DNA of 64,000 bases from an uncultured Methanosarcinales archaeon (lineage in GTDB: Archaea; Nanobdellota; Nanobdellia; Woesearchaeales; GW2011-AR15), in contig CAZHYZ010000002.1 of the NCBI GenBank assembly GCA_964537195.1, positions 66,416 through 130,415 on the forward strand. The letters are read 5' to 3'. Positions 1,293-51,695 of the stretch are shown here, one piece after another. Numbering within the stretch: the stretch's first letter is position 1; the number at the start of each line of letters is the position of its first letter. The notes under the pieces were generated by a model. The model ran no database searches. It was not told the DNA's origin and saw only the letters and a list, made by a program, of their open reading frames with translations. The translations under genes and the position numbers were made by a program.

Positions 1293-1295
1293 AAA

Positions 1296-1439: not shown

Positions 1440-1462
1440 ATGTAGCAAGAAAAACAAGTCAT

Positions 1463-2272: not shown

Positions 2273-2373
2273 TCAGAACCGAAAAAACAAACAGAATATA
2301 TAAATATATCGCATAAAGTAAGATAACGGTAAGATATATAAATTATTACGATTTGTAGAGGAAAGTGATTTAA

Positions 2374-3636: not shown

Positions 3637-3713
3637 TTAGTAATATTATAGTAAAATATTTATATTATTTACTTTTTTCTTAGTAATATTTTAATAAATA
3701 AAGAGGTGTTTTT

Positions 3714-6326: not shown

Positions 6327-6352
6327 AATAAGAGCAGTCTTTCTTTTTTTTA

Positions 6353-8193: not shown

Positions 8194-8222
8194 AGCTTAA
8201 AAAAAATAAGGAAAAAGTAAAA

Positions 8223-13043: not shown

Positions 13044-13074
13044 GAAAACAAGAAAGTCTTTTTTAGAAAGGAAA

Positions 13075-14247: not shown

Positions 14248-14248
14248 A

Positions 14249-15198
14249 TTAAGAAATCTTTCGAAACAGATAGTTTAGGTTTTGGTCATTCATTTTTATT
14301 TGTCTAAAATTTTTATTATAATATTTTTTATACTTCTTTGAATTCCCAATTTTTATAGATTCTTTTAGATGGTCTCCACCAATCTTTCTGTCAAAAACAC
14401 CACCCATTGAATCAATTAGTAAACCATTAGTTTTTAGTCCATAAGTAATTCTTTTCACTAATTTTAAAGGGTCCCTAACGTGCTCAAATAATTCTGTTGC
14501 AACTATTAAATCACATTTCTCCTTTTTCAATATAGGATAATGAGAAGGATTTTATATCTTTATTGTATTTATAAGATATTCTCTCTTTTTAAATCTCCAG
14601 ATGGCAAAATCAAATTTCTTATTGTCCAAATCCGCTATTGTCACATCGTCACCTTTTTCACAAAACAGTAAACCAATGTCGGAAACACCACACCCATAAT
14701 CAAGTATTGATAACTTTCTTCTTTTTCCTAATTGTTCTTTGATTTTGTCTAAATAATTTGTGACAAGAGTATATCTTGTATAGGCCATCATTAGTCTTAA
14801 AGTATAATCAAAGGAACTAATGCTATAAGCTTTGTTTAGCATCTGATTTGTTTTTGTATTTTCTTCAAAAGAGGCGTCAATCTTTTTTTAAATCTATAAC
14901 TAAAAGGAAACCCGTTTTTTAGATAATAAAAGAAAAGTTCAGCAGGTTTCAATCCAAAAAACTCTTCAATCTCTTTTTGTCTGTCAACAAACAAAGGTTT
15001 AGAAGGGTCAAGTTGTGTTTTTTTAATAAGTTCATGGTACTTGTTTCTTTTTATATTTGTTGGGTCTGTAAACATATGTTTGATAAAAAAACTTAATTTT
15101 AAAAAATCGTGAACAAGGGAAAATTTCTCAAAAAAGAAAGTATTTTTTTGTTCATTTAATTTCATAAAATAATCCTCTTTAATAATCTTATCTAACAA
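14249..15198 (-). pseudogene. Class I SAM-dependent methyltransferase disrupted into three reading frames (pseudogene or two sequencing frameshifts)
   Basis: Three consecutive minus-strand ORFs (15198..14836, 14842..14552, 14530..14249) are collinear with one MTase. Motif I LSILDYGCGVSDIG and the acidic-loop TIADLD fall in ORF2. Motif IV CDLIVATELFEHV..NGLLI falls in ORF3. Confidence 0.45.
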
Positions 15199-15300
15199 AA
15201 GAGAAGCCGTCAGTGCATCATATTAAAAAGAGAACAACCTTATATATTCTAAAATTATTTATATGTAAAAAATTAAAACAAACACAAGACTTGGCCGAAT

Positions 15301-16479
15301 ATGACTAAAAAACTATATGTCTTATCACAACAATTCTGGAAGAAAAAGGGATCTTATTCATTAGTTTTAAGAGAACTGTCTAAGGAAGCAAATAAACAAG
15401 GGTATAATGTCATAATTTTATGTGGTTTAAAAAGTAGTCAGAAAAAAAATGAAAAATTTGCTAACGGAATAATAAAGAGATTCAAAACAATGAATTTACC
15501 GGCGTTTGGATACATTATTAATGCCTATTATTTGGGGAGACAGATAAAAAAATACCTTGGAAAAGTAGGGGTTGTTAAGAACGATTTGATTTTTGCTAAT
15601 GGAGATGCTGCACTGGGGGCACTTGATCATAATTTCATACTTAGGGCAGGAGATCAACCTGCCCCAATATTTTTGAGAAACTTACAGATGTCAGAAGAAA
15701 AAATATCTTTTTTGGGGAAAATTGCTAGAAGAATTCATTTGAAACTTCAAGAAAAGATCGAAGAAAGAACCATAATGAACGCTGCCGGCGTAGTTTTTCC
15801 TTCTAAAAAGACAAGAAACCATTTTTGTAATCTTTATGGAGGAGAAGAAAAACCTTATTTTATACCTAGGTCTGGAGTTAATTTTTCTTCTTTTAAGAAA
15901 GGTAAGAAACTTCCTATAAAAGGAAAAAAATTATTATTTGTTTCAGCAGGCAGAGAGAGGATAAGGAAAGGTGTAATTTATCTTGAAAGAGCACTTCCAG
16001 AGTTATTTGATAAATATGAGGATCTTAAATTAGTACATGTGGGAGGAAAATTCGGGTGGAATGTTCCGACGAAATACAAAAACAGAATAATCACAGTTGG
16101 CAAAGTTCCTTGGAAAAAAATGAAAAATTATTATGCGACTGCAGATATATTTATCAACACCTCTTTGAGTGAAGGATTTCCCAACACAATTTTGGAGGCG
16201 ATGGCTGCAGGATGCCCTGTTGTCACGAGTGACATTGATGGAATTGAAGAATATATAACCCATAAAAAAGAAGGTTATATATTTGAAAGAGGAAACATAA
16301 GAAAATTGAAAAAAGGTATTGAATATTTGTTAAATAAAAAAAACTTCCCACACAAAATTTCTAAAAATGCTCAAGGAAAAATTAAGAAAATCAATTATGA
16401 GAACTATAATAGTAAATTATTAGAGTTTATTGAAAAAATAAATTGTAATAAAAAAATAAATGTAAACCTGTTGAAATAA
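15301..16479 (+). CDS. Glycosyltransferase family 4, paralogue of 13075..14247
   Basis: EGFPNTILEAMAAGCPVVTSDIDGIEEYITHKKEGYIFERG matches the upstream GT almost exactly (~85% nt identity over ~120 nt). Overall it is collinear with that gene. Confidence 0.75.
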   Translation: MTKKLYVLSQQFWKKKGSYSLVLRELSKEANKQGYNVIILCGLKSSQKKNEKFANGIIKRFKTMNLPAFGYIINAYYLGRQIKKYLGKVGVVKNDLIFANGDAALGALDHNFILRAGDQPAPIFLRNLQMSEEKISFLGKIARRIHLKLQEKIEERTIMNAAGVVFPSKKTRNHFCNLYGGEEKPYFIPRSGVNFSSFKKGKKLPIKGKKLLFVSAGRERIRKGVIYLERALPELFDKYEDLKLVHVGGKFGWNVPTKYKNRIITVGKVPWKKMKNYYATADIFINTSLSEGFPNTILEAMAAGCPVVTSDIDGIEEYITHKKEGYIFERGNIRKLKKGIEYLLNKKNFPHKISKNAQGKIKKINYENYNSKLLEFIEKINCNKKINVNLLK

Positions 16480-16517
16480 TAAAAATAAATTTAAAGTATA
16501 TCTTTTTCTTTCAAGAC

Positions 16518-17588
16518 ATGTCATTAAAAGTAGCATTATTAACAGGCTCTTTGAGGAATAGGGGAGGTGTAGAAAGGGTTGTGTTACACCAAGCGAAGGC
16601 TTTGAAAGCAGACATTATTGCAGGAAGATATAACTCCAACACAACATATGAAGAGTTCAAAAAGCTTAATGTGAAAACATTAATTAGTGAAAAATCATCA
16701 CAAAGAATAGGTGCGTTTTTATTAAGACATAAGTTCTCAAAACTAAAAGAAAAATACGATTTTTTCATATTCCATGGTGGAGTAACTCTTGAGGCAGCAA
16801 AAAACAATAAGCCAAACCTTTGGTATTGCCATTCTCCTACAAGATATTTATATGATTTATATGATGACGAACTAAAAAAACAAAGAGGATTAAAAAGAAG
16901 GGCTTTCAAAAAAGTTACTTCTTATTTGAGAAAAAGGGACCAAAAAAATGTTAGACAAATTAACACGATTGTTGTAAATTCTGAAAATGTAAAAAAAAGA
17001 GTGAAAAAATATTATAATAGAAGTTCTGATGTTGTTTACCCTTTTGTTGATTTAAATAAGTTTAAATGGATTTTACAAGGAGACTTCTATTTATCTACAG
17101 CTAGACTTGATCCAATAAAAAGAGTAGATTTGCTTGTTAGGGCATTTGAGAAAATGCCTGATAAGAACTTGATAATTGCAAGTTCTGGCCCAGAATATAG
17201 TAAACTTAAAAAGATGTCTGAAAATAAAAAAAACATAGCTGTTTTGGGTAGGGTATCTGATAAGAAACTAATAGAACTATATGGGAAATGTATAGCTACC
17301 TTCTCTGTTTCATATAAAGAAGATTTCGGTATGGTTCCATTAGAGAGCATGGCATGTGGAAAGCCATGTATAGCTACAAATACAGGAGGACATAAAGAAA
17401 CAATAATCGATAAAAAAACAGGAGAACTAATAAATCCAGAGAACATCGGGAACATTGTTGATGCCGTAAAAAAAATGTCTCCAGAAAATGCAAAGAAAAT
17501 GAGAAAAGCGTGTGAAAAAAGGGCAGAAGAGTTTTCTTTAGAGAAACACTTAACAAAACTAAAAAAAGCAATTTTAGAAACAAAATGA
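16518..17588 (+). CDS. Glycosyltransferase family 4
   Basis: EDFGMVPLESMACGKPCIATNTGGHKETIIDKKTGELI Glycos_transf_1 signature, with the E..E residues. Confidence 0.7.
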   Translation: MSLKVALLTGSLRNRGGVERVVLHQAKALKADIIAGRYNSNTTYEEFKKLNVKTLISEKSSQRIGAFLLRHKFSKLKEKYDFFIFHGGVTLEAAKNNKPNLWYCHSPTRYLYDLYDDELKKQRGLKRRAFKKVTSYLRKRDQKNVRQINTIVVNSENVKKRVKKYYNRSSDVVYPFVDLNKFKWILQGDFYLSTARLDPIKRVDLLVRAFEKMPDKNLIIASSGPEYSKLKKMSENKKNIAVLGRVSDKKLIELYGKCIATFSVSYKEDFGMVPLESMACGKPCIATNTGGHKETIIDKKTGELINPENIGNIVDAVKKMSPENAKKMRKACEKRAEEFSLEKHLTKLKKAILETK

Positions 17589-18547
17589 AGATATTTTTTT
17601 TAGGAGGAAACACCTGTAAATATCCTTTCTGGCCATTTCAATGTAAAAAAGCTTTTGAAAGTCTAGGTCATGAAATAAAATTTTTCAATTATAGATATCA
17701 ACATCTAAACAAAAACCATATTACAAACAAAATCCTTCATAAAATAATGTATAGAGAAATAATTAATTATCATCCAGACCTTCTTTTTGTTACAAAGGGG
17801 GAGACCTTACTTCCAGGATTTATAAAAAAAATTAGAGATAAAGGAATAAAAACAGCTAATTGGGTTATTGATGATCCAACTGGGAAACACTATCTGCAGA
17901 ACAAAGTCAGAAACATAAACGAGTATGGCGCTTTCTTTGTATTTGATCCTGCATATGTAAAAGAACTAAAGAAATTAAATCCAAACACACATTATCTTCC
18001 TTGTTTTGCAGACCCAGATAATGTTCATAAAGAAGTTATTTCTTTTAAAGAAAGGGATTACAGATATGATGTTTCCTTTGTTGGTTCACACCAACCAGAA
18101 AGAGAAAAATTTCTCAAGAAGCTTACAGATTACAATCTCCATATATGGGGATTTAGGTGGAACAAAGTAAAAGACAAAATTCTTCGTAAACACATTCATA
18201 AAGAAATTCCTCGAGGAAAAGACATGTGTAAAATTTTTAACAACACAAAAATCAATTTGAATATGCATGCAAAGCACTCTATTCAAGGATTGAATCTAAG
18301 AACTTTTGAAGTACCGGCAACCAAAAGTTTTCTTATAACTGATTACTACAGCGAATTAGACAATTTATTTAATGTAGGCAAGGAAGCAGTATTTTATAAA
18401 GACATATCTGATTTAAAGAAAAAAATAGATTATTATGTGAACCATAAAAAAGAAAGAGAGAAAATAGCATTAGCAGGATATAAAAGAGTAGTAAAGGAAC
18501 ACTCAATTAAAAAGAGAATTGAAAAATTGCTTAGAAATTTAAACTAA
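17585..18547 (+). CDS. CgeB-family glycosyltransferase-like protein (DUF3880 + Glyco_trans_1_2)
   Basis: C-terminal ..RTFEVPATKSFLITDYY..GKEAVFYKDISDLKKKIDYYVNHKKEREKIALAGYKRV resembles the CgeB/spore-maturation GT-like domain. Confidence 0.45.
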   Translation: MKIFFLGGNTCKYPFWPFQCKKAFESLGHEIKFFNYRYQHLNKNHITNKILHKIMYREIINYHPDLLFVTKGETLLPGFIKKIRDKGIKTANWVIDDPTGKHYLQNKVRNINEYGAFFVFDPAYVKELKKLNPNTHYLPCFADPDNVHKEVISFKERDYRYDVSFVGSHQPEREKFLKKLTDYNLHIWGFRWNKVKDKILRKHIHKEIPRGKDMCKIFNNTKINLNMHAKHSIQGLNLRTFEVPATKSFLITDYYSELDNLFNVGKEAVFYKDISDLKKKIDYYVNHKKEREKIALAGYKRVVKEHSIKKRIEKLLRNLN

Positions 18548-19657
18548 GTTCTTGTCTTTTAACTCATTATAGGCTTTATTGACGTCATCTTTTGATTCCT
18601 GTTTTCTAGACCATTCAACTAATTCTTTCATGCCTTTTTCTAAGGTAACTTTTGGAGTATATCCAACCATCTTTATTTTTGAGAGATATGGAGAACAATG
18701 ACGAATGTCCCCTTTTCTATATTTATTTGTAATTTTTGGTTTTAGTTTAGAACCATAAATTTTTATTAGTATCTGGGCAAGTTTTTTTATTGAGATAGTT
18801 TCTCCACTTCCAACATTGAATGCTTCATGATCATGTATTTTGTCTTTCATTATCAACATTGCAGCTTGAACAACATCATGTACACTTACAAAATCTCTAC
18901 TTTGTTGTCCGTCTTCAAATATTAATGGTGGTTTGTTATTTTTTATTCTACTTATAAAGATGGCAGCCGCTCCGGTATAGGGATTATTTAAGCTTTGTCT
19001 AGGACCATAAGTGTTCCATATCCTTAATGCTGCAGAGGGAATTCCGTATGCTTTGCAAACATTCAGAACAAGTTGTTCCTGTGTTTTTTTTGTTATAGCA
19101 TATACGTTTTTACTCAATAAGGGCGCAGATTCTTTAGTTGGAACGGGGTTAAGTATATTATTACAAACAGGGCATTTTGGTTCCCACTCATGGTTTATTA
19201 GTTGATTATTTGTTCTATTTACATTGAATAATTTCTTTTCACATTTTTTACAATAATAACTTCCTTCTCCATAAATAGTCATGCTGCTTGCAACTATAAT
19301 CTTTTTTATATTGTGATTTTCATTGGCAACCAAATGTAATAAATTCGCGGTCCCTAAGGAATTTGTTTTTACATATTCTTTTATCTTATACATAGATTGT
19401 CCAACACCAACACGTGCACCAAAGTGAAAAATTGTGTCTACATTGAGAATCTGTTTTTTTAATTCATCATAATTCGTAACGTCACCCCTTACAAAATTAG
19501 CTCTTTTGTTAATGTATTCTGGAACATTTCCCTGGTGAACCTGTGGTTCCAAATTATCAAATAATATCACATTATGTCCTTGTTTAATTAGTTCATCAGC
19601 CAAAAAAGACCCAATAAACCCTGCTCCCCCAGTTATTAATACGTTTTTCTTCATCAA
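18539..19657 (-). CDS. NAD-dependent epimerase/dehydratase (extended SDR) with an inserted C4 zinc ribbon
   Basis: VLITGGAGFIGS N-terminus and YxxxK region (YAITKK). A ~40-aa insertion YYCKKCEKKLF..KCPVCNN carries CxxC...CxxC. Confidence 0.7.
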   Translation of the reverse strand: MMKKNVLITGGAGFIGSFLADELIKQGHNVILFDNLEPQVHQGNVPEYINKRANFVRGDVTNYDELKKQILNVDTIFHFGARVGVGQSMYKIKEYVKTNSLGTANLLHLVANENHNIKKIIVASSMTIYGEGSYYCKKCEKKLFNVNRTNNQLINHEWEPKCPVCNNILNPVPTKESAPLLSKNVYAITKKTQEQLVLNVCKAYGIPSAALRIWNTYGPRQSLNNPYTGAAAIFISRIKNNKPPLIFEDGQQSRDFVSVHDVVQAAMLIMKDKIHDHEAFNVGSGETISIKKLAQILIKIYGSKLKPKITNKYRKGDIRHCSPYLSKIKMVGYTPKVTLEKGMKELVEWSRKQESKDDVNKAYNELKDKNLV

Positions 19658-19718
19658 GTTTTCTGAAATTATAGAACCTTATAAAAGTTACTGTAGAGGA
19701 AAAAGATATAAAAGAATA

Positions 19719-20726
19719 ATGGATTTTAGAACATTAATGAAACTGCCAAAAGTGATATGTAGTTCTGTTATTAGGTCTGCACACAAAGGAGAAAGCCATG
19801 GGGGTGTCTATATTGTCAACCTTGAAAGAGGTACACACCAAAAGGTTTTAGATTGGGACAAATCAGATATTAGTTGGGAAGGGAGAGGAGGAGACAGAGG
19901 CCTAAGGGGGATAGCAATTCATAAAGAAAAAATATTTCTTGTGGGGAGCAAACGTTTATTAGTATATAACAAAAAATTCAAAAAACTAGCAGAATTTAGA
20001 AATCAATATCTTAATTCCTGTCATGAAACATATTTGGACGACAACAAGCTTCATATCTCTTCCACAGGCACCGATTCTATCCTTGTATGTGACATAGATA
20101 AATCAAAATTTACTAAAGGTTATCATCTCTCAGTAACTTTTCAGAAAATTAAATTTCAATCATTAAGAATATTAAAGAAAAAAGGCCTTAACTTGTTGAA
20201 TTATTTTTCTCTAAAACCAAGAGTGAAAGAATTTGATCCAAATACAGATAATGGTCCAGAAAAAAAAGACACTCTTCACTTAAATAATGTTTTTTTAAAA
20301 GACAATAAATTGTTTTTTTCTGGAACAAGAATGAATGGATTGTATTATCTAGAAAAAGGAAGAACATATCGATATGCAAAACTTCCTTTCGGGACACACA
20401 ATTCAACCCCGTTAGAAAAAGGAGTTATATTTAACAGCACAGACAATCACAGCATAGTTTATAGAGATTTTGAGAAAAAAACTGAAAAGATTTTCTCAGT
20501 GAAAAAATTTGATAAAAAAGACATGCTAAATACAGACCTACCAAAAGATCACGCAAGACAAAGATTTGCCCGTGGTCTTATTGTAAGAGGAGATTTAATT
20601 ATTGGGGGGTCGTCTCCTGCAACAGTCTCTGTTTATTCTATAAAAAAAGGAAAACGCATAAAGTCTGTTACTCTTTCAAGAGACATTAGAAATGCAATAC
20701 ATGGTCTAGAGATATGGCCCTTTTAG
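19719..20726 (+). CDS. Hypothetical protein (possible beta-rich or propeller fold) inside the glycan locus
   Basis: 335-aa ORF with no signal peptide, coding-like composition, and no recognisable catalytic motif. Confidence 0.35.
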   Translation: MDFRTLMKLPKVICSSVIRSAHKGESHGGVYIVNLERGTHQKVLDWDKSDISWEGRGGDRGLRGIAIHKEKIFLVGSKRLLVYNKKFKKLAEFRNQYLNSCHETYLDDNKLHISSTGTDSILVCDIDKSKFTKGYHLSVTFQKIKFQSLRILKKKGLNLLNYFSLKPRVKEFDPNTDNGPEKKDTLHLNNVFLKDNKLFFSGTRMNGLYYLEKGRTYRYAKLPFGTHNSTPLEKGVIFNSTDNHSIVYRDFEKKTEKIFSVKKFDKKDMLNTDLPKDHARQRFARGLIVRGDLIIGGSSPATVSVYSIKKGKRIKSVTLSRDIRNAIHGLEIWPF

Positions 20727-20728
20727 AG

Positions 20729-21664
20729 TTATATTTTATTATATCCCCACAAAGAAATCAAATCTTTTCCAGTTAGTTTAGACAATTTTTTTACTTCTGG
20801 TTTATATTGTTTCATCAACTTTTTCTTGAACTCAACGTCCAAATCTGGACGTTTAGACGACTTTTTATTAAGATTAGCTATAAACGTATAAAGCCCATCA
20901 TATATCTTAAAAGGGACAATTTTTTTAATGAATTCTTTTAGAGGAGAGGGATCATAAATTAACTTTTGCATAATTTTACTTCTTGGTACAGAGAAAACAT
21001 TGTATCTTTTGAAATCAGGGTGAAAATATTTATCGACATCAAGAAAATCTAAGACTTCTTTATAAGTTTTTTCAGGAGACTTCTTCAAATCATCCAACAA
21101 CACAATTTTTACTTGTTTTTTAGGAAAGACTTCCAAATATCTATTTATTTGTTCTGAGAACTTTGCTAAATCTGAATAAAATAAACGAGAAGGGAACATT
21201 ACTACTTTAGGAATTTTATTTTTGTCTTTTTTTCTCTGTTCTTCTATTCTAAGCGCTTTTTGGAGAGACAAAGCATTGTCTATCCTATATAATGTGTTGT
21301 GTTTATGCATAGAATTTAAGAATTCAACAGGATTTCTCAACATAATGATTATTTTTGATTCAGGATTGAATTTCTTTATCTCTTTTGCAGCAACTTTGGA
21401 ATAAAGATAGAATACACTTGATTCACCTAGCTTTTTTTCTTTTTTTGCCTTCGAAAAAAGTCTCAGGTAGTCTTTTTCTTTTCTATATCTGAATCTCTTT
21501 TTTTCACCATAAAACACGTCACTCTTTTTATGTAGATCTTTACAAAAATAATGCGGTTCTTCTGGTTTAGAAACAAATATGTCTGGATGCTGATTAAGCA
21601 ACCTCCTTAAAGAAGTCGTTCCACTCTTTGGGAACCCAACAATAAAAAAATTTGGTTTTCTCAT
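20729..21664 (-). CDS. PAPS-dependent sulfotransferase
   Basis: 5'-PSB motif FIVGFPKSGTTSL at the N-terminus and a 3'-PB-like region (..IIMLRNPVEF..). Length is typical (311 aa). Confidence 0.8.
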   Translation of the reverse strand: MRKPNFFIVGFPKSGTTSLRRLLNQHPDIFVSKPEEPHYFCKDLHKKSDVFYGEKKRFRYRKEKDYLRLFSKAKKEKKLGESSVFYLYSKVAAKEIKKFNPESKIIIMLRNPVEFLNSMHKHNTLYRIDNALSLQKALRIEEQRKKDKNKIPKVVMFPSRLFYSDLAKFSEQINRYLEVFPKKQVKIVLLDDLKKSPEKTYKEVLDFLDVDKYFHPDFKRYNVFSVPRSKIMQKLIYDPSPLKEFIKKIVPFKIYDGLYTFIANLNKKSSKRPDLDVEFKKKLMKQYKPEVKKLSKLTGKDLISLWGYNKI

Positions 21665-21726
21665 TTAACTTGCAAAAAGCAGATAATTTTATATATCTTT
21701 TGAAGGTGCTGTTTATTGGTGATAAC

Positions 21727-22785
21727 TTGAAGATTTTAGTTACTGGCTCAGGGGGTTTAATTGGGTTTGAATGTTGTGATTTCTTCTTAGATAAGGGAGC
21801 AGAAGTTATTGGAATAGACAACAACCTTAGAAAATATTTTTTTGGAGAGGGGGGAGACACGACTGCAAATGTTAAGCACTTATCAAAAAAGTGGGACAAA
21901 TTCGAGAATCTAGATGTTGATATAAGGGACAGAGAGGAAATACTTTCAATTTTCAAGGAAAAAGGACCCTTTGATTTGATAATTCATACAGCAGCTCAGC
22001 CGTCTCATGATTGGGCGGCCAAAGAACCATTTACTGATTTTGATGTGAATGCTGTGGGCACACTTAATTTACTTGAAGCGTTTAGATTACATTCACCAAA
22101 TGGAGTGTTTATCTTTACTTCTACAAACAAAGTTTATGGTGACAGACCAAACAAAGTTAATTTAATAGAGGAAGAAACAAGATACGAATATGCTAAGAAA
22201 CAAGAAATGGCAGGAGTATCATTAAAAGGAATAAGTGAAGAGATGAAAATTGATGATTCTCTACATAGTTTATTCGGAGCATCAAAAGTTGCAGCAGACA
22301 TCTTATGCCAAGAATATGGAAGATATTTTGATTTAGATATAGGGATATTTAGGGGCGGTTGTTTAACAGGATCTCAGCATTCTGCAGTAGAACTCCATGG
22401 ATTTTTAACATATATTGTTGATTGTGCAGTAAATGGAAAACCTTATACTGTTTTTGGCTACAAAGGAAAACAAGTAAGAGACCAAATACATAGTCATGAT
22501 GTGGTCACAGCATTCTATGAATTCTTTAAAAATCCTAAGAAAGGAGAAGTTTATAATTTAGGCGGGGGAAAACAAAACGCTGCTTCAATATTAGAGGTTA
22601 TTAAGATTCTTGATGAAGAATTTGGTTACAAATTAAATTACTCTTTTAGTGAGAAAAACAGAAAAGGAGATCACATATGTTATTATAGTGATTTAACAAA
22701 ATTAAAAAAAGATTATCCTCATTGGAAAATAACTCGTTCATTAATTGACATAATGAATGAAATAATTAAAGCAAAGAAGGGTTAA
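21727..22785 (+). CDS. NAD-dependent epimerase/dehydratase (CDP-paratose 2-epimerase / UDP-sugar epimerase-like)
   Basis: KILVTGSGGLIGF Rossmann N-terminus and YGASKVAAD catalytic YxxxK. A TTG at 21727 is the likely start, because the tracked ATG-less start at 21652 overlaps the sulfotransferase start. Confidence 0.65.
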   Translation: MKILVTGSGGLIGFECCDFFLDKGAEVIGIDNNLRKYFFGEGGDTTANVKHLSKKWDKFENLDVDIRDREEILSIFKEKGPFDLIIHTAAQPSHDWAAKEPFTDFDVNAVGTLNLLEAFRLHSPNGVFIFTSTNKVYGDRPNKVNLIEEETRYEYAKKQEMAGVSLKGISEEMKIDDSLHSLFGASKVAADILCQEYGRYFDLDIGIFRGGCLTGSQHSAVELHGFLTYIVDCAVNGKPYTVFGYKGKQVRDQIHSHDVVTAFYEFFKNPKKGEVYNLGGGKQNAASILEVIKILDEEFGYKLNYSFSEKNRKGDHICYYSDLTKLKKDYPHWKITRSLIDIMNEIIKAKKG

Positions 22786-22817
22786 TTTATTAAAATACAA
22801 ACGAATTTTGGTTCTTT

Positions 22818-23864
22818 ATGAAAGTATTGATGTGTGGTTTTTACGACATAAACTATTATTCCAGGGCCAGAATATTGTATAAAGGATTAAAATCACAGAA
22901 AGTTGAAGTAAAAAAATGTCTGCCTAGAAAGAGAAACAAATACAAGATTTTAATTAAAAGACTTCTAAAAAAAGATTTTGACATAATTGTTGCTACCGGA
23001 AAAATCTGTTTTCTTATTTGCTGGTTGTTTAAACCATTCCACAGAAAGAAAATAGTTTTTGATTTTGTAATAACAGATTATGATACTTTGGTCAGGTCAA
23101 GAAAGAAAGTCAAAAAAGACACAATAAGGGCAAAGTTAATTTGGCTAAGTGATAAAATTGCCTTGAAATTATCAGACAAGGTTATGGGAGAATGTAATGA
23201 ATTTAACGAGCAGGTAGCAAAAGAATATGACATTAAAAAAGAAAAGTTTTCAGATGTTGTTCTTGGTGCAGACGAAGACATCTTTTATCCCAGGAAGAAA
23301 AAGAAGTCAAAAAAATTTACAATATATTATCACGGTACCTTTATACCACACCATGGCTTGGAGTATGTTGTGGAAGCAGCCAAACTATTAAAGAAGGAAA
23401 AACAGATAATGTTTAAATTTATAGGAGAAGGACAGACATATAATGAGATGAAAGAACTTTCTGGGAAATACAAATTAAAAAATGTTGAATTTCTTGGATT
23501 TCAAAAAATTACAAACGTTCCAAAGATGTTGGCAGAAGCAGATTTGTGCTTAGGAATATTCAAAAATAGCATAAAAGCGAAGAGACATGTAACTCATAAG
23601 ATCTTTGAAGTTTTGGCAATAAAAAAACCCTTATTAACAGGGAATTCACCTGCAACTACAAGGATATTGAATCATTTAGAGCATTGTTATTTCTGTAAAT
23701 TAGGAGATGCAAAATCTTTGGCTAAAGGCATTCTATATTTAAAAAAAAACCCAAAGAAAAGAAAAAAGATAGCAGAGCAAGGCTATAAAAAACACTTAGA
23801 AGAGTTTACTTATAAGAAGATAGGTCTAAGAATGAAAGAGATTCTTGAAGATATTTTAGATTAG
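22818..23864 (+). CDS. Glycosyltransferase (GT-B, Glycos_transf_1 C-terminal domain)
   Basis: YYHGTFIPHHGLEYVVEAAKLL..FIGEGQ..FLGF.. motif order typical of GT4-like enzymes. Confidence 0.55.
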   Translation: MKVLMCGFYDINYYSRARILYKGLKSQKVEVKKCLPRKRNKYKILIKRLLKKDFDIIVATGKICFLICWLFKPFHRKKIVFDFVITDYDTLVRSRKKVKKDTIRAKLIWLSDKIALKLSDKVMGECNEFNEQVAKEYDIKKEKFSDVVLGADEDIFYPRKKKKSKKFTIYYHGTFIPHHGLEYVVEAAKLLKKEKQIMFKFIGEGQTYNEMKELSGKYKLKNVEFLGFQKITNVPKMLAEADLCLGIFKNSIKAKRHVTHKIFEVLAIKKPLLTGNSPATTRILNHLEHCYFCKLGDAKSLAKGILYLKKNPKKRKKIAEQGYKKHLEEFTYKKIGLRMKEILEDILD

Positions 23865-24029
23865 TTTTTTACCTTTTCGATTTTTTGTTTCTGTAGCACC
23901 GGTTCTATGATATAGATAAGACTAGATACTTTTTAATCACTTAGAAACACATATTATAATATGATATTTAAAAACATTATATATAATGGAAAGATATTTA
24001 TTCTAGTTATATAATATTTTATGATATAA

Positions 24030-24212
24030 ATGGAAGACGGAGAAAAAATTAATACATTCCCTGCAAAAATTAGAAAATGGGGAGATAGTTTCGCAATTAC
24101 AATTGATAAAAATATTATTGATACTTTAGATCTGGGTCTGGGTTTTGTTCTTGAGGTTAGAATTTTAAATGTAGATAGAACGGTTTCAAAAGATAAGGGG
24201 AATAAAAAATGA
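24030..24212 (+). CDS. Small AbrB/MazE (SpoVT-AbrB swapped-hairpin)-like protein
   Basis: KIRKWGDSFAITIDKNIIDTLDLGLGFVLEV matches the vrkwGnS.aitIPk..l..l.l..Gd.vev pattern. The stop overlaps the next GT start (ATGA). Confidence 0.35.
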   Translation: MEDGEKINTFPAKIRKWGDSFAITIDKNIIDTLDLGLGFVLEVRILNVDRTVSKDKGNKK

Positions 24213-25462
24213 AAGTATTAATGATATCAGAATATTACCCTCCACACGGGAAAGGAGGAGGAGAAATAAGTGCAAAGATGCTTGCAGAACTATTGTCTAA
24301 AGAGAAAAATATTGAAATGCACGTTCTTACATCTTATTTTGGAGAAAAGAAAAAGAAGGAGAAAAAAGGGAAACTTACAATTCATAGGTATCTGAAGACA
24401 GGAGAATCTCCAACATCTTTAATAGGGAATATTAAGAGAGAAGCCCAATTCAAAAGATCTTTGTTAAAGGAATTGAAAGTTCTAAATGAAAAAGAAAAAT
24501 TTGACATCATTCAGTGCATGAATTCAACAAGCATTCATGCTATTAAACTTAAAGATTTTATAGATGCAAAATTTATTTTACAAGCCCACGGTCCAGTTCT
24601 TTTTTGTCCTAAAGCGACATTGATTTATAAGCATGAAAAATCTTGTGATGTTGAATGCAATCTTAAAAATTATACCAAATGTTATTTTAATTCTAAAGCA
24701 ATAGGTAAAATGGATTTTAAACCCCACTTGAAATATAATCCTGTTGTTTTTTATGAATTAAGACGCCGCTATAATGAATATAAAAAATTATTCAAACAAT
24801 TTGATTATTATGTTGCTATAAGTGGATATATGGAAAAAAGAGCAATTTTTATGGGGGCAAATAAAAAAGATGTGAAAATTATTTATCATCCGATAGATGT
24901 TGACAAATATCTGAAATTAAAATCTCCTAAGAATAAACTCAAGAAGATTCTTTATTTGGGAGCATATAGTAGAACAAAGGGACCACAAATATTATTAAAT
25001 GCTCTAAGAACTATTAAGGAACCATACGAAGCTAACTTTTATGGTGAGGGCGTATTAAAAGAGTTATTAAGAAAAAGGGTCAAAGAATTTAATCTCAATG
25101 TTACTATTCATGATAAAATTAGTAATGGAGAAGTTCCCAATGTACTTGAAAAACATGATGTTGTTGTGGTTCCTTCTTTTGTAGGGGAAGCTCTTGGAAA
25201 AGTAGGAATAGAAGCGAGAGCCTCAGGAAAACTTGTTGTTGCATCAGATGTTGGAGGTATTCCGGATGTTGTGACAAACAAAAAGAATGGTTATTTATTT
25301 AAACCAGGAGATGCAAATGAATTAGGTACAATTCTCAAACAAATACTAAAAGGTAAACTTAGTCTGAGTTTAAAAGAAATTAGAAAAAACATAGACATAT
25401 TTTCTGCTAAGAAAATAGTCCCAAAGATAAAGAAAGCATATAATTCTTTAATTAAATCCTAA
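24209..25462 (+). CDS. Glycosyltransferase family 4 with a Cys-rich insertion
   Basis: N-terminal MKVLMISEYYPPHGKGGGE and C-terminal PSFVGEALGKVGIEARASGKLVVASDVGGIPDVV..NGYLF. The insertion reads FCPKATLIYKHEKSCDVECNLKNYTKC. Confidence 0.75.
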   Translation: MKVLMISEYYPPHGKGGGEISAKMLAELLSKEKNIEMHVLTSYFGEKKKKEKKGKLTIHRYLKTGESPTSLIGNIKREAQFKRSLLKELKVLNEKEKFDIIQCMNSTSIHAIKLKDFIDAKFILQAHGPVLFCPKATLIYKHEKSCDVECNLKNYTKCYFNSKAIGKMDFKPHLKYNPVVFYELRRRYNEYKKLFKQFDYYVAISGYMEKRAIFMGANKKDVKIIYHPIDVDKYLKLKSPKNKLKKILYLGAYSRTKGPQILLNALRTIKEPYEANFYGEGVLKELLRKRVKEFNLNVTIHDKISNGEVPNVLEKHDVVVVPSFVGEALGKVGIEARASGKLVVASDVGGIPDVVTNKKNGYLFKPGDANELGTILKQILKGKLSLSLKEIRKNIDIFSAKKIVPKIKKAYNSLIKS

Positions 25463-25620
25463 AACAAAGCATAAACAAAGGGACTTACTGCACTGCTTTG
25501 TCCAAATATTATCAATATTCCAACCAGTATGAGCATTAATATAATTGGAGTAAGCCACCACACCTTTCTTACTTTTAGAAAATCCCAGAGTTCAGCAAGT
25601 AATGATTTGTTTTTTGCCAT
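25459..25620 (-). CDS. Small membrane protein (53 aa), DUF5989/SxtK-like, downstream of the carbamoyltransferase
   Basis: Minus-strand ORF MAKNKSLLAELWDFLKVRKVWWLTPIILMLILVGILIIFGQSSAVSPFVYALF. It was too short for the ORF track. Similar small proteins accompany NodU-type carbamoyltransferases elsewhere (from memory, not searched). Confidence 0.45.
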   Translation of the reverse strand: MAKNKSLLAELWDFLKVRKVWWLTPIILMLILVGILIIFGQSSAVSPFVYALF

Positions 25621-25645
25621 GTTGTGTTTTAAAGTAATTGTTTTT

Positions 25646-27415
25646 TTAATTCTTTGCGTTTTTTTGGCTATTCCATGTGTCTTTTGAATTATCTTTTCTT
25701 TTGATAAGGAATTTGTCTAATATCATATAATCAATTCCAGTCCCCATCATGCATGTATATGCATCATAAGGTGTACAGACAATAGGTTCTCCCCTTATAT
25801 TAAACGAAGTATTAATTAACATGGGAACTCCAGATATTTTTCCGAATTCTTTAATTAAATCATAATACAACCTATTTTGTTTTTTTCTTATTGTTTGTAA
25901 TCTACCAGAGCCATCCACATGAGTTACAGACGGAAGTTTTTTATGCCACTTCTTTTTAATAGGATATACCATCAACATGAAATCAGTTGGTTGAGGTAAT
26001 GGAGAATCACATTCAAAGAATTTTTTTGTATCTTCCCTACAAACAACAGGAGCAAATGGCCTAAATGACTCCCTATGTTTAACTTTTTTATTTAGGATTT
26101 TTTTCATCTTTGGATTAAGTGGGTTAGCTAAAATGCTTCTGTTACCTAGGGCTCTGGGACCAAATTCCATCCTTCCTTGAAACCAGCCAACAACATTATC
26201 TTCATAAATCAACCCAGCAGTTTTTTTAACCAATTCTTTTTTGTTCTTGAACACAGAATAATTAATCTCATTTTCATCTAAGAATTGGTTAATCTCCCTT
26301 GTCGAAAACCCAGGTCCAAACGAGGCAGAGTCCATAACATAATCTCTCTTCTTTCCAAGTACAACATTGTAAATATGTTGTGCTACTCCCAAACTAGTGC
26401 CACCGTCTCCGGCAGCAGGCTGTATCCACACCTTTTTAAAAGGACTATTTTTCAATACTTTTCCATTAAAAACACTGTTTAAAGCAACACCACCAGATAA
26501 AACAAGATTGTCACCTTTTGTTTTTTTGTGTACATACTTAAGAATTTTGAATAGTGTCTCTTCAGTTATCATTTGTAAAGCAGCTGCAATATTCTTGTGT
26601 TTCTGTGTTAGTTTGCTCTCCGGTTTTCTTATGGGTCCACCAAGCATTTTACATAATTTCTCTGAAGGCATTCTGTCTGCATAATGATATTTGAAATAAG
26701 TCATATCTAATCTAAAACTGCCATCTTCTTTGACATCTATTGCTTTCTTCAGTTTCTTGTAATATGGATTCTTATTTTTGTCTTTAAGTCCATACGAAGC
26801 AAGCCCCATGACCTTGAATTCGGAATTATTTACCTTAAATCCGAGATAGGCAGTAAGGGTAGAATATAATAAACCAAGAGAATGAGGAAATCTAATTTCG
26901 TTTATCAATTCAATTTTATTATTTTTTCCATAACCAACTGTTGTGGTAGTCCATTCTCCCACACCATCTACAGTAACAATTGCACTTTCTCTAAATGGAC
27001 TTACTAAAAAGGAGCTAGCAGCATGTGCCATGTGATGAGGTATAAATAAGACATCTCCATTATACTTTAACTTTTTTATAATGGTCTTTATTATTCTAAG
27101 TTTTTCATTTATCCAGGAAGGAGTAGAACTCAAAAAGGCTTTGTAGCTTTTTGGGAAGCTCTGAAGGTGTTGATATAAGAGACGTTCAAATTTTAATAAG
27201 GGTTTTTCATAAAATCCAACATAATCAACTTCTTTAATAGTTATGTTTTGGCTTTTCAGACAATATTTTATCGCATTTATTGGAAATCCCTCATCATGTT
27301 TTTTTCTAGTAAAACGTTCTTCTTCGGCCGCGGCAACAATTTTTCCATTTTTTAATAATGTTGCAGAAGAATCATGATAATAGCAACTTACTCCAAGGAC
27401 ATACATCTTATTCAA
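25646..27415 (-). CDS. Carbamoyltransferase (NodU/CmcH family)
   Basis: MYVLGVSCYYHDSSATLL..EEERFTRKKHD N-terminal YrdC/Kae1-like domain plus a C-terminal carbamoyltransferase domain over 589 aa. Confidence 0.85.
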   Translation of the reverse strand: MNKMYVLGVSCYYHDSSATLLKNGKIVAAAEEERFTRKKHDEGFPINAIKYCLKSQNITIKEVDYVGFYEKPLLKFERLLYQHLQSFPKSYKAFLSSTPSWINEKLRIIKTIIKKLKYNGDVLFIPHHMAHAASSFLVSPFRESAIVTVDGVGEWTTTTVGYGKNNKIELINEIRFPHSLGLLYSTLTAYLGFKVNNSEFKVMGLASYGLKDKNKNPYYKKLKKAIDVKEDGSFRLDMTYFKYHYADRMPSEKLCKMLGGPIRKPESKLTQKHKNIAAALQMITEETLFKILKYVHKKTKGDNLVLSGGVALNSVFNGKVLKNSPFKKVWIQPAAGDGGTSLGVAQHIYNVVLGKKRDYVMDSASFGPGFSTREINQFLDENEINYSVFKNKKELVKKTAGLIYEDNVVGWFQGRMEFGPRALGNRSILANPLNPKMKKILNKKVKHRESFRPFAPVVCREDTKKFFECDSPLPQPTDFMLMVYPIKKKWHKKLPSVTHVDGSGRLQTIRKKQNRLYYDLIKEFGKISGVPMLINTSFNIRGEPIVCTPYDAYTCMMGTGIDYMILDKFLIKRKDNSKDTWNSQKNAKN

Positions 27416-28331
27416 CTCTTAAAAGTTTAAGCAATAGAGCTTTTTGCATGTGTAATCTGTTTTCTGCCTGATCAAACACCACGCTTTGAGAACCATCTAT
27501 TACTTCTTCTGTTTGTTCCATTCCTCTTTGTGCTGGAAGGCAATTCATGAAAATAGCATCTTTTTTTGCATTCTTCATTAAATCAGAGGTTACTTGAAAA
27601 GGTTTTAATACTTTTATTCTGTCTTTTTTTTCCTCTTCAGGAACATGATAAGACATCCAGGAATCAGTATATACTATGTCTGCATCTCTGGTTGCCTCTT
27701 CTGGATTGTCTGTAATTATTATTTTGCTATTCTCTGCAAGACTTTTTGCCTTTTCTAATACTTCTTTTAATGGTTCATATTCTTCTCCCTTTGGACAACC
27801 AACAGATATGTCAATACCCATATTAGCACACCCAAACAAAAGAGAATGAGTTACATTGTTTTTTCCATCTCCCAAATAACCCAGTTTTAAGCCTTCTAAT
27901 GTTCCTTTTTTCTCTTTTATGGTCAGGAAATCAGATAATATTTGGCAAGGATGTGAAAAATCTGTTAGACCATTTATAACGGGAACAGAGGAACTCTTTG
28001 CCAACTTTTTTAATTGTGAATGAGAGTATAGTCTTGCCATGATTACATCAACATATCTAGAAGCTGTTTTGGCAGTATCAGAAACAGATTCTTTTTTCCC
28101 CATAGGTGAATCTTTTAGATCATAAAATATGGCATGTCCACCTAATTGAGTCATACCAACCTCAAAACTAACACGCGTTCTTAAAGAAGGTTTTTCAAAC
28201 ATCATCAATAAAGATTTTTGTTTTAATTTCTCTTTGTACTCCCCAGAGTTCTTTTTTATTCTCTCTGCTAAATCTATTAATTCTAGGATTTCTTTTTTAC
28301 TTAAGTCTGTTAGATCAATTAAATCTTTCAT
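27408..28331 (-). CDS. Ornithine-carbamoyltransferase-like transcarbamylase with a divergent substrate-binding loop
   Basis: SLRTRVSFE (STRTR), HPCQ (HPxQ) and NCLPAQRG (HCLP) motifs are present. The ornithine-binding DxxxSMG loop is replaced by DSWMSYH. Confidence 0.7.
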   Translation of the reverse strand: MKDLIDLTDLSKKEILELIDLAERIKKNSGEYKEKLKQKSLLMMFEKPSLRTRVSFEVGMTQLGGHAIFYDLKDSPMGKKESVSDTAKTASRYVDVIMARLYSHSQLKKLAKSSSVPVINGLTDFSHPCQILSDFLTIKEKKGTLEGLKLGYLGDGKNNVTHSLLFGCANMGIDISVGCPKGEEYEPLKEVLEKAKSLAENSKIIITDNPEEATRDADIVYTDSWMSYHVPEEEKKDRIKVLKPFQVTSDLMKNAKKDAIFMNCLPAQRGMEQTEEVIDGSQSVVFDQAENRLHMQKALLLKLLRVE

Positions 28332-28332
28332 T

Positions 28333-28569
28333 TTAAAACATCCTGTAATAATTTTCTTTATCTTCTTTTTTCAAATTTAAAGAAGACCAATAACTTTCTC
28401 TTTTCATCTTAGTTTCTAAAAACTCTTTTTTAGCTATTTTTGCTATGATTGAGGTTATCCCAACACCAACAAGATAAACAATAGAAAGTAAAACAGAATT
28501 AATTATTATTGAGATATTCTCCCCAAAATCTTTAAACCCTCTTTTGAAACCAATAAACAAGTCTTTCAT
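28333..28569 (-). CDS. Small membrane protein (78 aa)
   Basis: One or two TM segments (IIINSVLLSIVYLVGVGITSIIAKI). It sits between the transcarbamylase and the next small ORF with an ATGA overlap. Confidence 0.35.
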   Translation of the reverse strand: MKDLFIGFKRGFKDFGENISIIINSVLLSIVYLVGVGITSIIAKIAKKEFLETKMKRESYWSSLNLKKEDKENYYRMF

Positions 28570-28763
28570 CTTAGATACCTCTTTAGGATAAATCCAAAAA
28601 GGGTGATGGATAAAGTAATGGTTATGATTTTTAGTAAGTTTCCTTTACCCACAAAATTCAAAACAAAAAATAACACCATAGAAAAAAACGAAAAACCAAC
28701 TAAGAAACCCAGAAAGTAACCGAACTTATACAATTTTTCATTTCTTTGAAAAGCCTTAATCAC
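28566..28763 (-). CDS. Small membrane protein (65 aa)
   Basis: Two predicted TM helices (FGYFLGFLVGFSFFSMVLFFVLNFV; IITITLSITLFGFIL). It overlaps its neighbours by a few nt. Confidence 0.35.
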   Translation of the reverse strand: MIKAFQRNEKLYKFGYFLGFLVGFSFFSMVLFFVLNFVGKGNLLKIITITLSITLFGFILKRYLR

Positions 28764-29700
28764 GGTCTTCTAAAATTTTTTCAAAATAATTAATTGTTTT
28801 TTTCAAGCCCTCTTCAAATCCAACTTTTGGTTCCCAACTCAATAGTTTTCTTGCCTGTGAGATGTCTGGCTGTCTTTTACTAGGATCATCTTTGGGTAAT
28901 GGAAGATACTTAAATTCAGATTTTGCTCCAGTAATCTTTTTAATTAACTCAGCAGTTTCCATAATTGAATATTCTTTTGGATTTCCTAAATTTTTAGGAC
29001 CAATTTCTTTTGATTTCATCATTTTTATTAATCCTGATACCATGTCATCTATATAACAAAAAGACCTTGTTTGGGAACCATCTCCATATATAGTGAGGGG
29101 GTCGTTTTGCAAAGTCTGAGTAATAAAATTAGGAATAACTCTGCCGTCATCTATTCTCATTCTGGGACCATATGTGTTAAATATTCTTACTATTTTAACA
29201 TCAACATTATATTCTCTATAATACGCCATCAAAAGTGCTTCACCAAATCTCTTGCTTTCATCATAACAACTTCTTATACCAACAGGATTAACATTTCCCC
29301 AATAAGATTCTTTTTGAGGATGTTCTCTTGGTTCACCATATGCTTCACTTGTGCTTGTGAAAAGAATGACGGCATTCTTTGCTAACGCTAATTTTGCCAT
29401 TCTGTCTGTCCCAACAGAATTTGCTAAAGCAGTCTCAACAGGATATTTTTGATAATCTTCCGGACTAGCTCTAGATGCCAGGTGAAATATCCAGTCAATC
29501 TTACCTTCAATTAATTGTAATGGTTCTATGATGTTGTGTTTTATAAATCTAAATTTTTTATTATCGGTAAGGTGTCTCACGTTTTCAAAGGTTCCACTAC
29601 CGAGATTATCTACACAAATTACTTCGTGCCCTTCTTTTAGAAGTTGTTCACAGAGATGGCTTCCTATGAATCCTGCTCCCCCAGTTACGAGTACTCTCAT
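28756..29700 (-). CDS. uxs: UDP-glucuronate decarboxylase (UDP-xylose synthase)
   Basis: MRVLVTGGAGFIGSHL and SCYDESKR (YxxxK), with high overall collinearity to UXS/ArnA-decarboxylase SDRs (..FNTYGPRM..). Confidence 0.75.
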   Translation of the reverse strand: MRVLVTGGAGFIGSHLCEQLLKEGHEVICVDNLGSGTFENVRHLTDNKKFRFIKHNIIEPLQLIEGKIDWIFHLASRASPEDYQKYPVETALANSVGTDRMAKLALAKNAVILFTSTSEAYGEPREHPQKESYWGNVNPVGIRSCYDESKRFGEALLMAYYREYNVDVKIVRIFNTYGPRMRIDDGRVIPNFITQTLQNDPLTIYGDGSQTRSFCYIDDMVSGLIKMMKSKEIGPKNLGNPKEYSIMETAELIKKITGAKSEFKYLPLPKDDPSKRQPDISQARKLLSWEPKVGFEEGLKKTINYFEKILEDRD

Positions 29701-29782
29701 GGGTTTTTTGAATTATTACCTTATTATAAACTTTTTTCTTTTCATCAATAATTTTAATAAGACATTGCATTTTTAGAGAAAC

Positions 29783-48743: not shown

Positions 48744-48782
48744 GAAAGATTTATATATCTTGTTTGTTCTAAGAAATAGAGA

Positions 48783-51694: not shown

Positions 51695-51695
51695 A

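Follow-up and report, generated by a model that had tools for sequence, protein, structure and literature searches.

An ornithine carbamoyltransferase (OTC) gene stands directly beside a gene for an ATP-dependent O-carbamoyltransferase (CT) in a 64,000-nucleotide stretch of archaeal DNA, hereafter the window (GenBank assembly GCA_964537195.1, contig CAZHYZ010000002.1, positions 66,416 to 130,415 of the forward strand; uncultured archaeon, GTDB lineage Woesearchaeales). The OTC is very probably an ornithine/citrulline transcarbamylase of the clade to which the Giardia enzyme belongs, and its pairing with the CT is a genuine coupling that recurs and that has apparently not been described before. 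All the parts are of known families, and the novelty lies in how they are wired together. Judging from synteny, we think it on balance probable that the whole chain operates, including the hand-off of carbamoyl phosphate (CP) from one enzyme to the other; citrulline phosphorolysis would then feed the O-carbamoylation of a glycan in an organism devoid of carbamoyl-phosphate synthetase (CPS).

A six-gene unit on the minus strand

The two genes are part of a packed run of six, listed here in gene order after the candidate promoter element.

29721..29730, minus strand: candidate archaeal TATA box (TTTATAATAA), read from the sequence
28756..29700, minus strand: NAD-dependent sugar-nucleotide epimerase/dehydratase, first gene of the packed run
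28566..28763, minus strand: open reading frame (ORF) of 65 amino acids (aa) with two hydrophobic helices, the N-terminal half of a split protein
28333..28569, minus strand: 78-aa ORF, one hydrophobic helix, conserved ...SYW...YYRQF tail; the C-terminal half of the split protein
27408..28331, minus strand: OTC of the Giardia/Trichomonas-type (DxxxSYH, NCLP) clade, 307 aa, assigned by hidden Markov models (HMMs), structure and tree
25646..27415, minus strand: CmcH/NodU/TobZ-type ATP-dependent O-carbamoyltransferase (the CT), 589 aa from a TTG start, with two full-length Pfam domains
25459..25620, minus strand: DUF5989 protein, 53 aa, one hydrophobic helix (PF19451, E 7.9e-22, 77.5 bits against a cut-off of 27)

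A preliminary description of the window, made from the letters without database searches, had called the last five of these ORFs, and all five were recovered at the same coordinates and on the same strand. Along the order epimerase, 65-aa ORF, 78-aa ORF, OTC, CT and DUF5989, the intergenic distances are -8, -4, 1, 1 (or -8) and 25 nt. The stop region of the epimerase gene and the GTG start of the 65-aa ORF overlap by 8 nt (TTG is the other possible start of this ORF), a 4-nt ATGA overlap joins the 65-aa and 78-aa ORFs, and the latter ends 1 nt upstream of the OTC ATG. The junction between OTC and CT reads GTTGAATAAGATG, with an ATG for the CT located 1 nt past the OTC stop codon. This ATG, at 27406, is the likely real start of the CT; the ATG..TAA overlap previously described for the two genes was an error, as only the TTG start would overlap, by 8 nt. 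DUF5989 follows the CT after the 25-nt spacer, and its stop overlaps a convergent GT4 glycosyltransferase gene by 4 nt. At the other end of the run, a purine-rich stretch precedes the candidate TATA box, and the ATG of the first gene is found ~20 nt downstream of the box, which is the likely promoter of the unit. From this arrangement we infer that the six genes form one transcription unit. The epimerase matches the Pfam families Epimerase (E 6e-53) and GDP_Man_Dehyd (E 3e-52) and reaches no NCBIfam equivalog cut-off; a similar epimerase is found upstream of the related cassette in locus L172.

Assignment of the transcarbamylase

All the lines of comparison place the window protein among the OTCs. 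It contains the Pfam domains OTCace_N (E 3e-49) and OTCace (E 2e-56), and its scores are well above the cut-offs of the OTC equivalog TIGR00658 (385.2 bits against 280.85) and of NF001986 (392.9 against 306). Its best sequence matches in the PDB are all OTCs. An AlphaFold2 model (pLDDT 95, pTM 0.93) recovers OTCs exclusively among its top 50 Foldseek matches in the PDB, with TM values of 0.89-0.95 (0.91 for 3GRF, the OTC of Giardia lamblia). The other transcarbamylases were tried and rejected. For putrescine carbamoyltransferase (PTC) the score was 312 against a cut-off of 500 (TIGR04384), residue 47 is Lys and not Gln, and the 307-aa chain is devoid of the C-terminal PTC helix (~20 residues). 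Scores were equally insufficient for acetylornithine transcarbamylase (AOTC; 176.8 against 288), YgeW (58-63 against 453-500) and aspartate transcarbamylase (ATC; 156-158 against 237-263), while succinylornithine transcarbamylase (SOTC) was rejected on curated HMM cut-offs and motif criteria.

The active-site segments that differ from textbook OTCs are the following.

28173..28199, minus strand: FEKPSLRTR, the CP/phosphate motif, with the OTC-type Lys of FxKxSxRT and Leu for the usual Thr
27645..27668, minus strand: TDSWMSYH, equivalent of the 240s/SMG loop (residues 222-229), with Asp and Ser kept and Met-Gly replaced by Tyr-His
27534..27545, minus strand: NCLP, the HxLP motif with His replaced by Asn and with Cys, Leu and Pro kept

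The first and the third had been misread in the preliminary description as STRTR and HCLP. Its HPxQ motif is present (as HPCQ), and so is the TDSWMSYH loop in place of DxxxSMG. A further change, absent from that description, affects the conserved Arg of the xRGE segment, which here reads GKKE. Lys47, HPCQ, GKNNV (the NNV motif), Asp223, Ser227, Cys264-Leu-Pro and ENRLH are all kept. In the transcarbamylase family, the residue at the Lys position of FxKxSxRT is a class marker (Lys in OTC, Gln in PTC and Glu in ATC; PMC4581275), and the ornithine-binding residues named in the same work are retained except for Met236, i.e., the Lys of FxKxSxRT, the Asn of NNV and the Asp and Ser of the loop. The canonical DxxxSMG and HCLP of OTCs are not found (the protein has DSWMSYH and NCLP), but this does not exclude membership because the Giardia (3GRF) and Trichomonas OTCs carry the same variant.

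The Giardia enzyme reads PSLRTR, GGKET, TDSWMSYH and MNCLPATRG at these positions. It has been treated as a trimeric catabolic OTC that acts in the arginine dihydrolase pathway (PMC6022934; PMC9506655), and two OTCs of Trichomonas vaginalis with “unusual DxxxSYH and NCLP motifs” were judged catabolic, as part of the same pathway (PMC4581275). Among the 120 best homologues of the window protein, SLRTR is universal (120/120), the SYH loop is found in 118, with the exact TDSWMSYH in 114, and NCLPAxRG and the xKE segment (mostly GKKE) are present in nearly all. Given that these features are shared throughout, the window protein is a member of a conserved clade and not a one-off. There is some variation inside the clade, as N and H alternate at the HxLP motif (the close relative P0005 has HCLP). 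SLRTR was rejected as a distinguishing mark, being also present in many ordinary SMG-type OTCs. In a neighbour-joining distance tree (58 sequences, not maximum likelihood), the window protein, the Giardia OTC and the SYH-type proteins formed one clade in 94/100 bootstraps; this clade holds about 120 homologues from DPANN archaea and bacteria of the candidate phyla radiation (CPR). The SMG-type OTCs, including the enzymes of Pyrococcus furiosus and Bacillus anthracis, fall outside. The preliminary description had considered that the second substrate was probably not ornithine and had itself named alignment of the loop to a known OTC subfamily as evidence to the contrary. This is what we found with Giardia 3GRF, and on this comparison the SYH loop is the normal signature of its clade rather than a new specificity. 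The predicted activity is ornithine + CP <-> citrulline + Pi. For annotation purposes, proteins with DxxxSYH and NCLP should be regarded as OTCs and not as a new specificity class. One member, the OTC of locus L011 (9989-10939), which is linked to a carbamate kinase gene, departs from the clade at positions that are otherwise invariant, with SLRTE for SLRTR and HDLP for NCLP. This copy may be divergent or degenerating, or may reflect a sequence or assembly error.

The O-carbamoyltransferase and its small membrane partners

The CT has the two domains of its family at practically full length, Carbam_trans_N (PF02543, positions 2-345 of 346, E 9e-77), which is Kae1-like, and Carbam_trans_C (PF16861, positions 2-170 of 170, E 2e-71), which is YrdC-like. 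The nearest solved enzymes are PDB 7XB6 (E 5e-98), GdmN, the novobiocin CT (NovN) and TobZ, and the alignment to 7XB6 conserves the HHxAH, GPRALGNRS, FRPFAP, THVD and NTSFN segments, which hold the metal and nucleotide motifs. Identity with NodU itself was rejected (NF041651, 150 against a cut-off of 1000). Enzymes of the CmcH/NodU type cleave CP, form carbamoyl-AMP from ATP and pass the carbamoyl group to a hydroxyl (PMC6022934).

Small membrane proteins flank the pair, and the analogy drawn in the preliminary description with the small-protein partners of other carbamoyltransferases gains support from both sides. Downstream, the 53-aa ORF that it had assigned to DUF5989 does belong to PF19451. 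The DUF5989 gene is kept downstream of the CT in loci L081, L082, L167, L169 and L172 and in the P0130 locus. By its size and position, we take it to be a probable equivalent of SxtK. Upstream, the two ORFs at 28333..28763 were rightly described as small membrane proteins, with hydrophobic helices in both. A profile of the 78-aa ORF matched 1036 cluster representatives at E <= 1e-3, many of them proteins of 141-157 aa in which the match lies in the C-terminal half. In fused relatives of 145-152 aa, it is the N-terminal half that the 65-aa ORF matches (P0170, E 6e-9; P0183, E 8e-7), and L082 and L165 each have a homologue of this ORF (38% and 39% identity, respectively) upstream of their 78-aa ORF. 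Because one ORF matches the N-terminal and the other the C-terminal half of the fused relatives, they are the two halves of a ~150-aa, three-helix membrane protein that is fused in other genomes. The profile search from the 78-aa family also reached two PF19588 proteins, and hhalign comparisons with PF19588 proteins gave probabilities of 96.6-97.5% over the C-terminal 60-79 columns, the alignment running to the shared ...SYW...QF end in two of three comparisons. We take PF19588 to be the family that Pfam calls SxtJ. The two small ORFs and 18 fused relatives had no Pfam match to such a family at E <= 1, and the two ORFs had no NCBIfam match either; a weak Plasmid_parti match in these scans was below its cut-off and was disregarded.

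A cassette of this kind also exists without OTC. The P0130 locus has the order 78-aa-ORF homologue (sm78), CT, AlgX-like protein and DUF5989, and a GDSL/AlgX-like protein is also encoded in L081, L082, L167 and L172. In L172, the OTC gene is located exactly between sm78 and the CT. The core cassette is thus made up of the small membrane protein, the CT, in some loci an SGNH/AlgX-like protein, and DUF5989, with or without the OTC. Since the P0130 cassette lacks it, the OTC seems to be an optional insert or add-on, and when present in the cassette it sits right beside the CT.

Recurrence of the gene pair

Apart from the window, the CT gene adjoins that of the OTC in L081, L082/83, L165, L167, L169 and L172. 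The first is a Patescibacteria contig, and the others are Woesearchaeota-like. In L168, the order is reversed (CT-OTC) and the CT is only 38% identical to that of the window, so that the pairing is seen in both gene orders and with two CT lineages. Of ten OTC look-ups among the closest relatives of the window OTC (65-71% identity), six showed the CT beside the OTC, as did a further locus to which a homologue of the 78-aa ORF led independently, and the pairing is confined to relatives at this level of identity. Counting all the fetched loci of at least 8 kb, the CT was present at 7 of the 23 SYH-type loci versus none of the 91 ordinary (non-SYH) OTC loci (Fisher p = 6e-6, or 3e-5 after removal of a duplicate locus). 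The CT was absent beside the OTC at 11 SYH-type loci from species-representative genomes (L001-L011), and a metagenome scan of 600 stretches yielded few members of the clade. The idea of a CP-making and CP-using pair, proposed in the preliminary description, thus has comparative support in this recurrent, clade-specific adjacency. Our literature search found no description of a pairing between OTC and O-carbamoyltransferase, nor relevant work on DUF5989, 7XB6 or PF19588.

The nearest relative of the archaeal window OTC is bacterial. In the Patescibacteria locus L081, the OTC is 71% identical and the gene order (sm78-OTC-CT-DUF5989) is the same, while the CT and DUF5989 are only 51% identical to those of the window. 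This suggests a transfer of the cassette across domains, between CPR bacteria and DPANN archaea. In L165, a DDE transposase gene lies directly upstream of the small-ORF/OTC/CT cassette (4352-5516 region), a DUF5989 copy that had not been called as a gene is found further upstream at 4352-4504, and a methyltransferase gene is inserted between OTC and CT; we read these features as signs of a rearranged, mobile cassette. In L168 (4295-8387), the CT and OTC genes are followed by one for a 473-aa deaminase-like amidohydrolase, nearest to 8-oxoguanine deaminase and chlorohydrolase-type deaminases and below all the cut-offs. A possible role for it is the production or recycling of a ureido or amine compound in an additional step.

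The surface-glycan cluster and its archaeal setting

The window has a G+C content of ~32% and contains an archaeal RNase P RNA (61134-61430) and a 5S rRNA. Pfam scans detected HerA/NurA, eRF1, RFC and a TrmB regulator. The RNase P RNA together with these proteins identifies the DNA as archaeal. The nearest homologues of the window proteins are from Woesearchaeota, Nanoarchaeota, Micrarchaeota, Diapherotrites and Patescibacteria, which fits a DPANN-type lineage, a low-GC archaeon, as the source. The carbamoylation unit is preceded in the window by the remaining glycan genes.

1463..25462: remaining surface-glycan cluster, from Pfam scans

This region encodes an NTP-transferase, two UDP-Glc/GDP-Man dehydrogenases, a LamG protein, a methyltransferase, a Wzx-like flippase, a CysQ-like phosphatase, two adenosine phosphosulfate (APS) kinases, a pyruvyl transferase, a sulfotransferase, about eight GT1/GT4 glycosyltransferases and two epimerases. 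On gene content, a single glycan cluster spans 1.4-29.7 kb, with the carbamoylation unit at its edge. The CysQ-like gene (of the inositol-monophosphatase family), the two APS kinase genes, in tandem, and those of the sulfotransferase and pyruvyl transferase (12021-13043) share the cluster (9736-12024, 20729-21664), which implies a glycan that is probably sulfated and pyruvylated on the surface of this DPANN-type archaeon. One of the APS kinases, with 310 aa, has a 136-aa N-terminal extension for which there was no Pfam match. The two APS kinases and the CysQ-like phosphatase are genes for the supply of phosphoadenosine phosphosulfate (PAPS) for sulfation, and since the cluster already holds donor-supply genes for one modification, a donor-supply gene for carbamoylation is plausible.

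Pfam scans of 54 ORFs (nearly all the non-nested ORFs of at least 110 aa; 56 when the two small ORFs are counted) found no arginine deiminase (ADI), carbamate kinase, CPS, ArgG or ArgH in the 64-kb window. They bear out the earlier statement that no other arginine genes are present, and the ADI and carbamate kinase context expected of a catabolic OTC is likewise missing within the window.

Proposed role and alternative explanations

In the mechanism that we propose, the OTC would run phosphorolytically (citrulline + Pi -> ornithine + CP) and the CT would then carry out the reaction CP + ATP + glycan-OH -> O-carbamoyl-glycan + AMP + PPi + Pi, via carbamoyl-AMP. The carbamoyl group would be placed on a sugar of the glycan that the cluster makes, and the small membrane proteins would hold or couple the CT at the membrane. 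The equilibrium of the OTC reaction lies far towards citrulline (Keq ~1e5; PMC7818446), and a transcarbamylase working in catabolism depends on a later reaction to draw it forward, usually that of carbamate kinase (PMC6022934). Here, the ATP-driven CT step would pull the unfavourable phosphorolysis, taking the role that carbamate kinase has in the ADI pathway. A more elaborate version, which we put forward only tentatively, is that a Giardia-type catabolic OTC was recruited into an sxtIJKL-like cassette in CPS-less DPANN and CPR organisms. Citrulline would be the carbamoyl donor, CP would perhaps be channelled into the TobZ-type transferase, held at the membrane by the SxtJ/SxtK-like proteins, and adenylation would replace carbamate kinase as the pull.

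Several observations weigh against citrulline phosphorolysis as the source of CP for the glycan. Both the direction of the reaction and the CP hand-off are read from the gene neighbourhood, and the use of ornithine by SYH-type enzymes is taken from the descriptions of the Giardia OTC in later papers. The window covers 64 kb of a contig of 145 kb, and genes for carbamate kinase, ADI or CPS may be present elsewhere in the genome; no citrulline source was identified in the 64-kb window. The CT is missing from 16 of the 23 SYH-type loci. The Woesearchaeal OTC spot is conserved, with genes for HerA/DUF87, a SurA-like protein, NFACT and tRNA synthetases nearby, and the OTC is found there both with the CT (L082, L169) and without it (L166, L170). 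Several of the Woesearchaeal loci share their flanking genes, so that some of the adjacencies counted are due to common ancestry and are not independent events. The HerA/DUF87 gene recurs beside the OTC locus in L082, L169, L170 and L172. Lastly, some SYH-type loci adjoin the gene for aspartate transcarbamylase (ATCase), another CP consumer, which would fit a looser clustering of CP enzymes.

Some of these points would be accommodated if the OTC is a plain enzyme of the ADI pathway that makes ATP together with a carbamate kinase encoded elsewhere, its adjacency to the CT being historical, the result of a mobile cassette inserted at a conserved Woesearchaeal locus with no dedicated hand-off. 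We regard this as unlikely, although it is the alternative with most in its favour. Carbamate kinase genes (arcC equivalog, above the cut-off) are located directly upstream of the SYH-type OTC in L011 and L088, and in L171 the OTC is preceded by a 328-aa AA_kinase-family gene of carbamate-kinase size, with a match at the family level only. The active-site blocks of the L171 OTC are the same as those of the window protein, and the TDSWMSYH loop is shared with the carbamate-kinase-linked relatives. The adjacency of kinase and OTC is the classical catabolic pairing for L011 and L088, with L171 as a probable third case; ADI was not found beside the carbamate-kinase-linked OTCs. The same HerA/SurA/NFACT neighbourhood without a CT, the transposase beside the cassette in L165 and the 16 loci without CT would all be expected from an insertion of this kind. 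However, OTC and CT are paired in other neighbourhoods too: in L081, where the setting is a Patescibacteria glycan cluster, and in L168, where the order is reversed and the CT is of the other lineage. In addition, the OTC has been inserted precisely between sm78 and the CT in a cassette that otherwise lacks it. The bacterial and the reversed cases, together with this insertion, argue for function over history, as do the near-zero gene spacing in the window and the absence of the CT from the 91 ordinary OTC loci. It should be noted that this explanation overlaps with the supply of CP to the glycan, as one OTC could feed both sinks.

An anabolic OTC (CP + ornithine -> citrulline), grouped with the CT under shared regulation as a fellow consumer of CP made elsewhere by carbamate kinase or CPS, seems improbable to us. 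The equilibrium that strongly favours citrulline (PMC7818446) speaks for it, and the sequence itself fixes no direction. It would also be in line with L002, L003, L004 and L089, in which the SYH-type OTC is directly beside an ATCase gene (TIGR00670, above the cut-off). These ATCase-linked loci come from Kiritimatiellae/Verrucomicrobia-like and archaeal metagenome-assembled genomes, with a GT9 heptosyltransferase gene next in L004 and L089, and in the bacteria among them the SYH-type enzyme may be an ordinary anabolic ArgF. On the other side, no arginine-biosynthesis or CP-producing gene was found in the 64 kb of the window, the characterised member of the clade is catabolic and three relatives are kinase-linked. 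Moreover, CPS and the de novo synthesis of arginine and pyrimidines are usually missing from the genomes of DPANN and CPR organisms.

The weakest reading is that of the preliminary description, a new second substrate in which CP is exchanged with another ureido or amine compound; the changes behind it (Met-Gly to Tyr-His, His to Asn in HxLP and Arg to Lys in xRGE) are real and conserved and putrescine transcarbamylase also uses a loop Tyr (PMC4581275), but identical changes are found in the Giardia OTC of arginine catabolism, the ornithine-contacting Lys, Asn, Asp and Ser are retained and the scores with the PTC, AOTC and YgeW models are well below their cut-offs, all of which makes it very unlikely.

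If citrulline phosphorolysis does feed the CT, CPS-less organisms with minimal genomes would have an add-on through which citrulline or arginine, once scavenged, could be used to carbamoylate the glycans of their surface. The uses of “catabolic” transcarbamylases would be wider than thought, with a third physiological role besides biosynthesis and ATP-yielding fermentation. The prediction is that host-interacting DPANN and CPR cells have envelopes that are carbamoylated and also sulfated and pyruvylated.

Other features of the window

A LAGLIDADG_3 homing-endonuclease-like ORF (E 3e-7; 459-1292, plus strand) stops 2 nt short of the 5S rRNA (1294-1441, minus strand). Next to the six-gene unit are a HerA-like (DUF87) gene and a NurA gene (29783-31771 and 33871-34845), with genes for an asparagine-synthase-like protein and a PfkB sugar kinase in between. 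Six consecutive ORFs at 47547-54334 (398, 651, 320, 286, 310 and 265 aa) had no Pfam match at E <= 1e-5, and for those at 19719-20726 (335 aa) and 37307-38089 (260 aa) none was found even at E <= 1e-3.

Comparison with known systems

The best solved-structure sequence match of the window OTC is the enzyme of P. furiosus (PDB 1A1S), with 50% identity and the same length and fold. It differs in having the canonical STRTR, RRGE, SMG and HCLP and in falling outside the SYH clade. The likeness to the Giardia (3GRF) and Trichomonas OTCs is of another kind. They share PSLRTR, xKE for RGE, TDSWMSYH and NCLPAxRG, their chains are short and lack the insertions that E. coli/Pseudomonas-type OTCs have, and the common clade (94/100) and the structural similarity (TM 0.91) agree with this, in spite of an identity between the window and Giardia enzymes of only 49%. 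The Giardia OTC differs further in its HPLQ motif and in seven residues inserted after the hinge, and its partners are ADI and carbamate kinase, for ATP, whereas the neighbour of the window OTC is an O-carbamoyltransferase, with neither of these enzymes in the 64 kb.

The arrangement resembles the arcB-arcC pairing in that an unfavourable, CP-releasing phosphorolysis is found beside a CP consumer (PMC6022934). The proposed sink here is, in contrast, an ATP-consuming transferase, so that the cell would spend energy in decorating a glycan instead of gaining it. With TobZ, GdmN, NovN and 7XB6, the CT shares the Kae1-like and YrdC-like domains and the conserved metal and nucleotide motifs; the substrates of those enzymes are antibiotics, and the actinomycetes that contain them have a CP synthetase of their own, while the acceptor in the window is presumed to be a glycan sugar.

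The closest parallel for the cassette as a whole is found in sxtI/J/K/L of the saxitoxin cluster. Both have a NodU/CmcH-type CT with a short ORF (sxtK, 165 bp, ~54 aa; DUF5989 in the window) (PMC2679770; PMC2684587; PMC2885083), and sxtJ (405 bp, a membrane protein of ~134 aa) would correspond to the split, PF19588-homologous ORFs of 65 and 78 aa (PMC2679770; PMC2684587). The GDSL lipase SxtL has its counterpart in the GDSL/AlgX-like protein of relatives L081, L082, L167 and L172. The window differs in its glycan-cluster context, in the splitting of the SxtJ-like protein, in having no GDSL gene and in the inserted OTC. The unit could provide a simple experimental system for the long-unexplained SxtJ/SxtK partners of O-carbamoyltransferases and, if the proposed coupling is true, the first functional handle on them.

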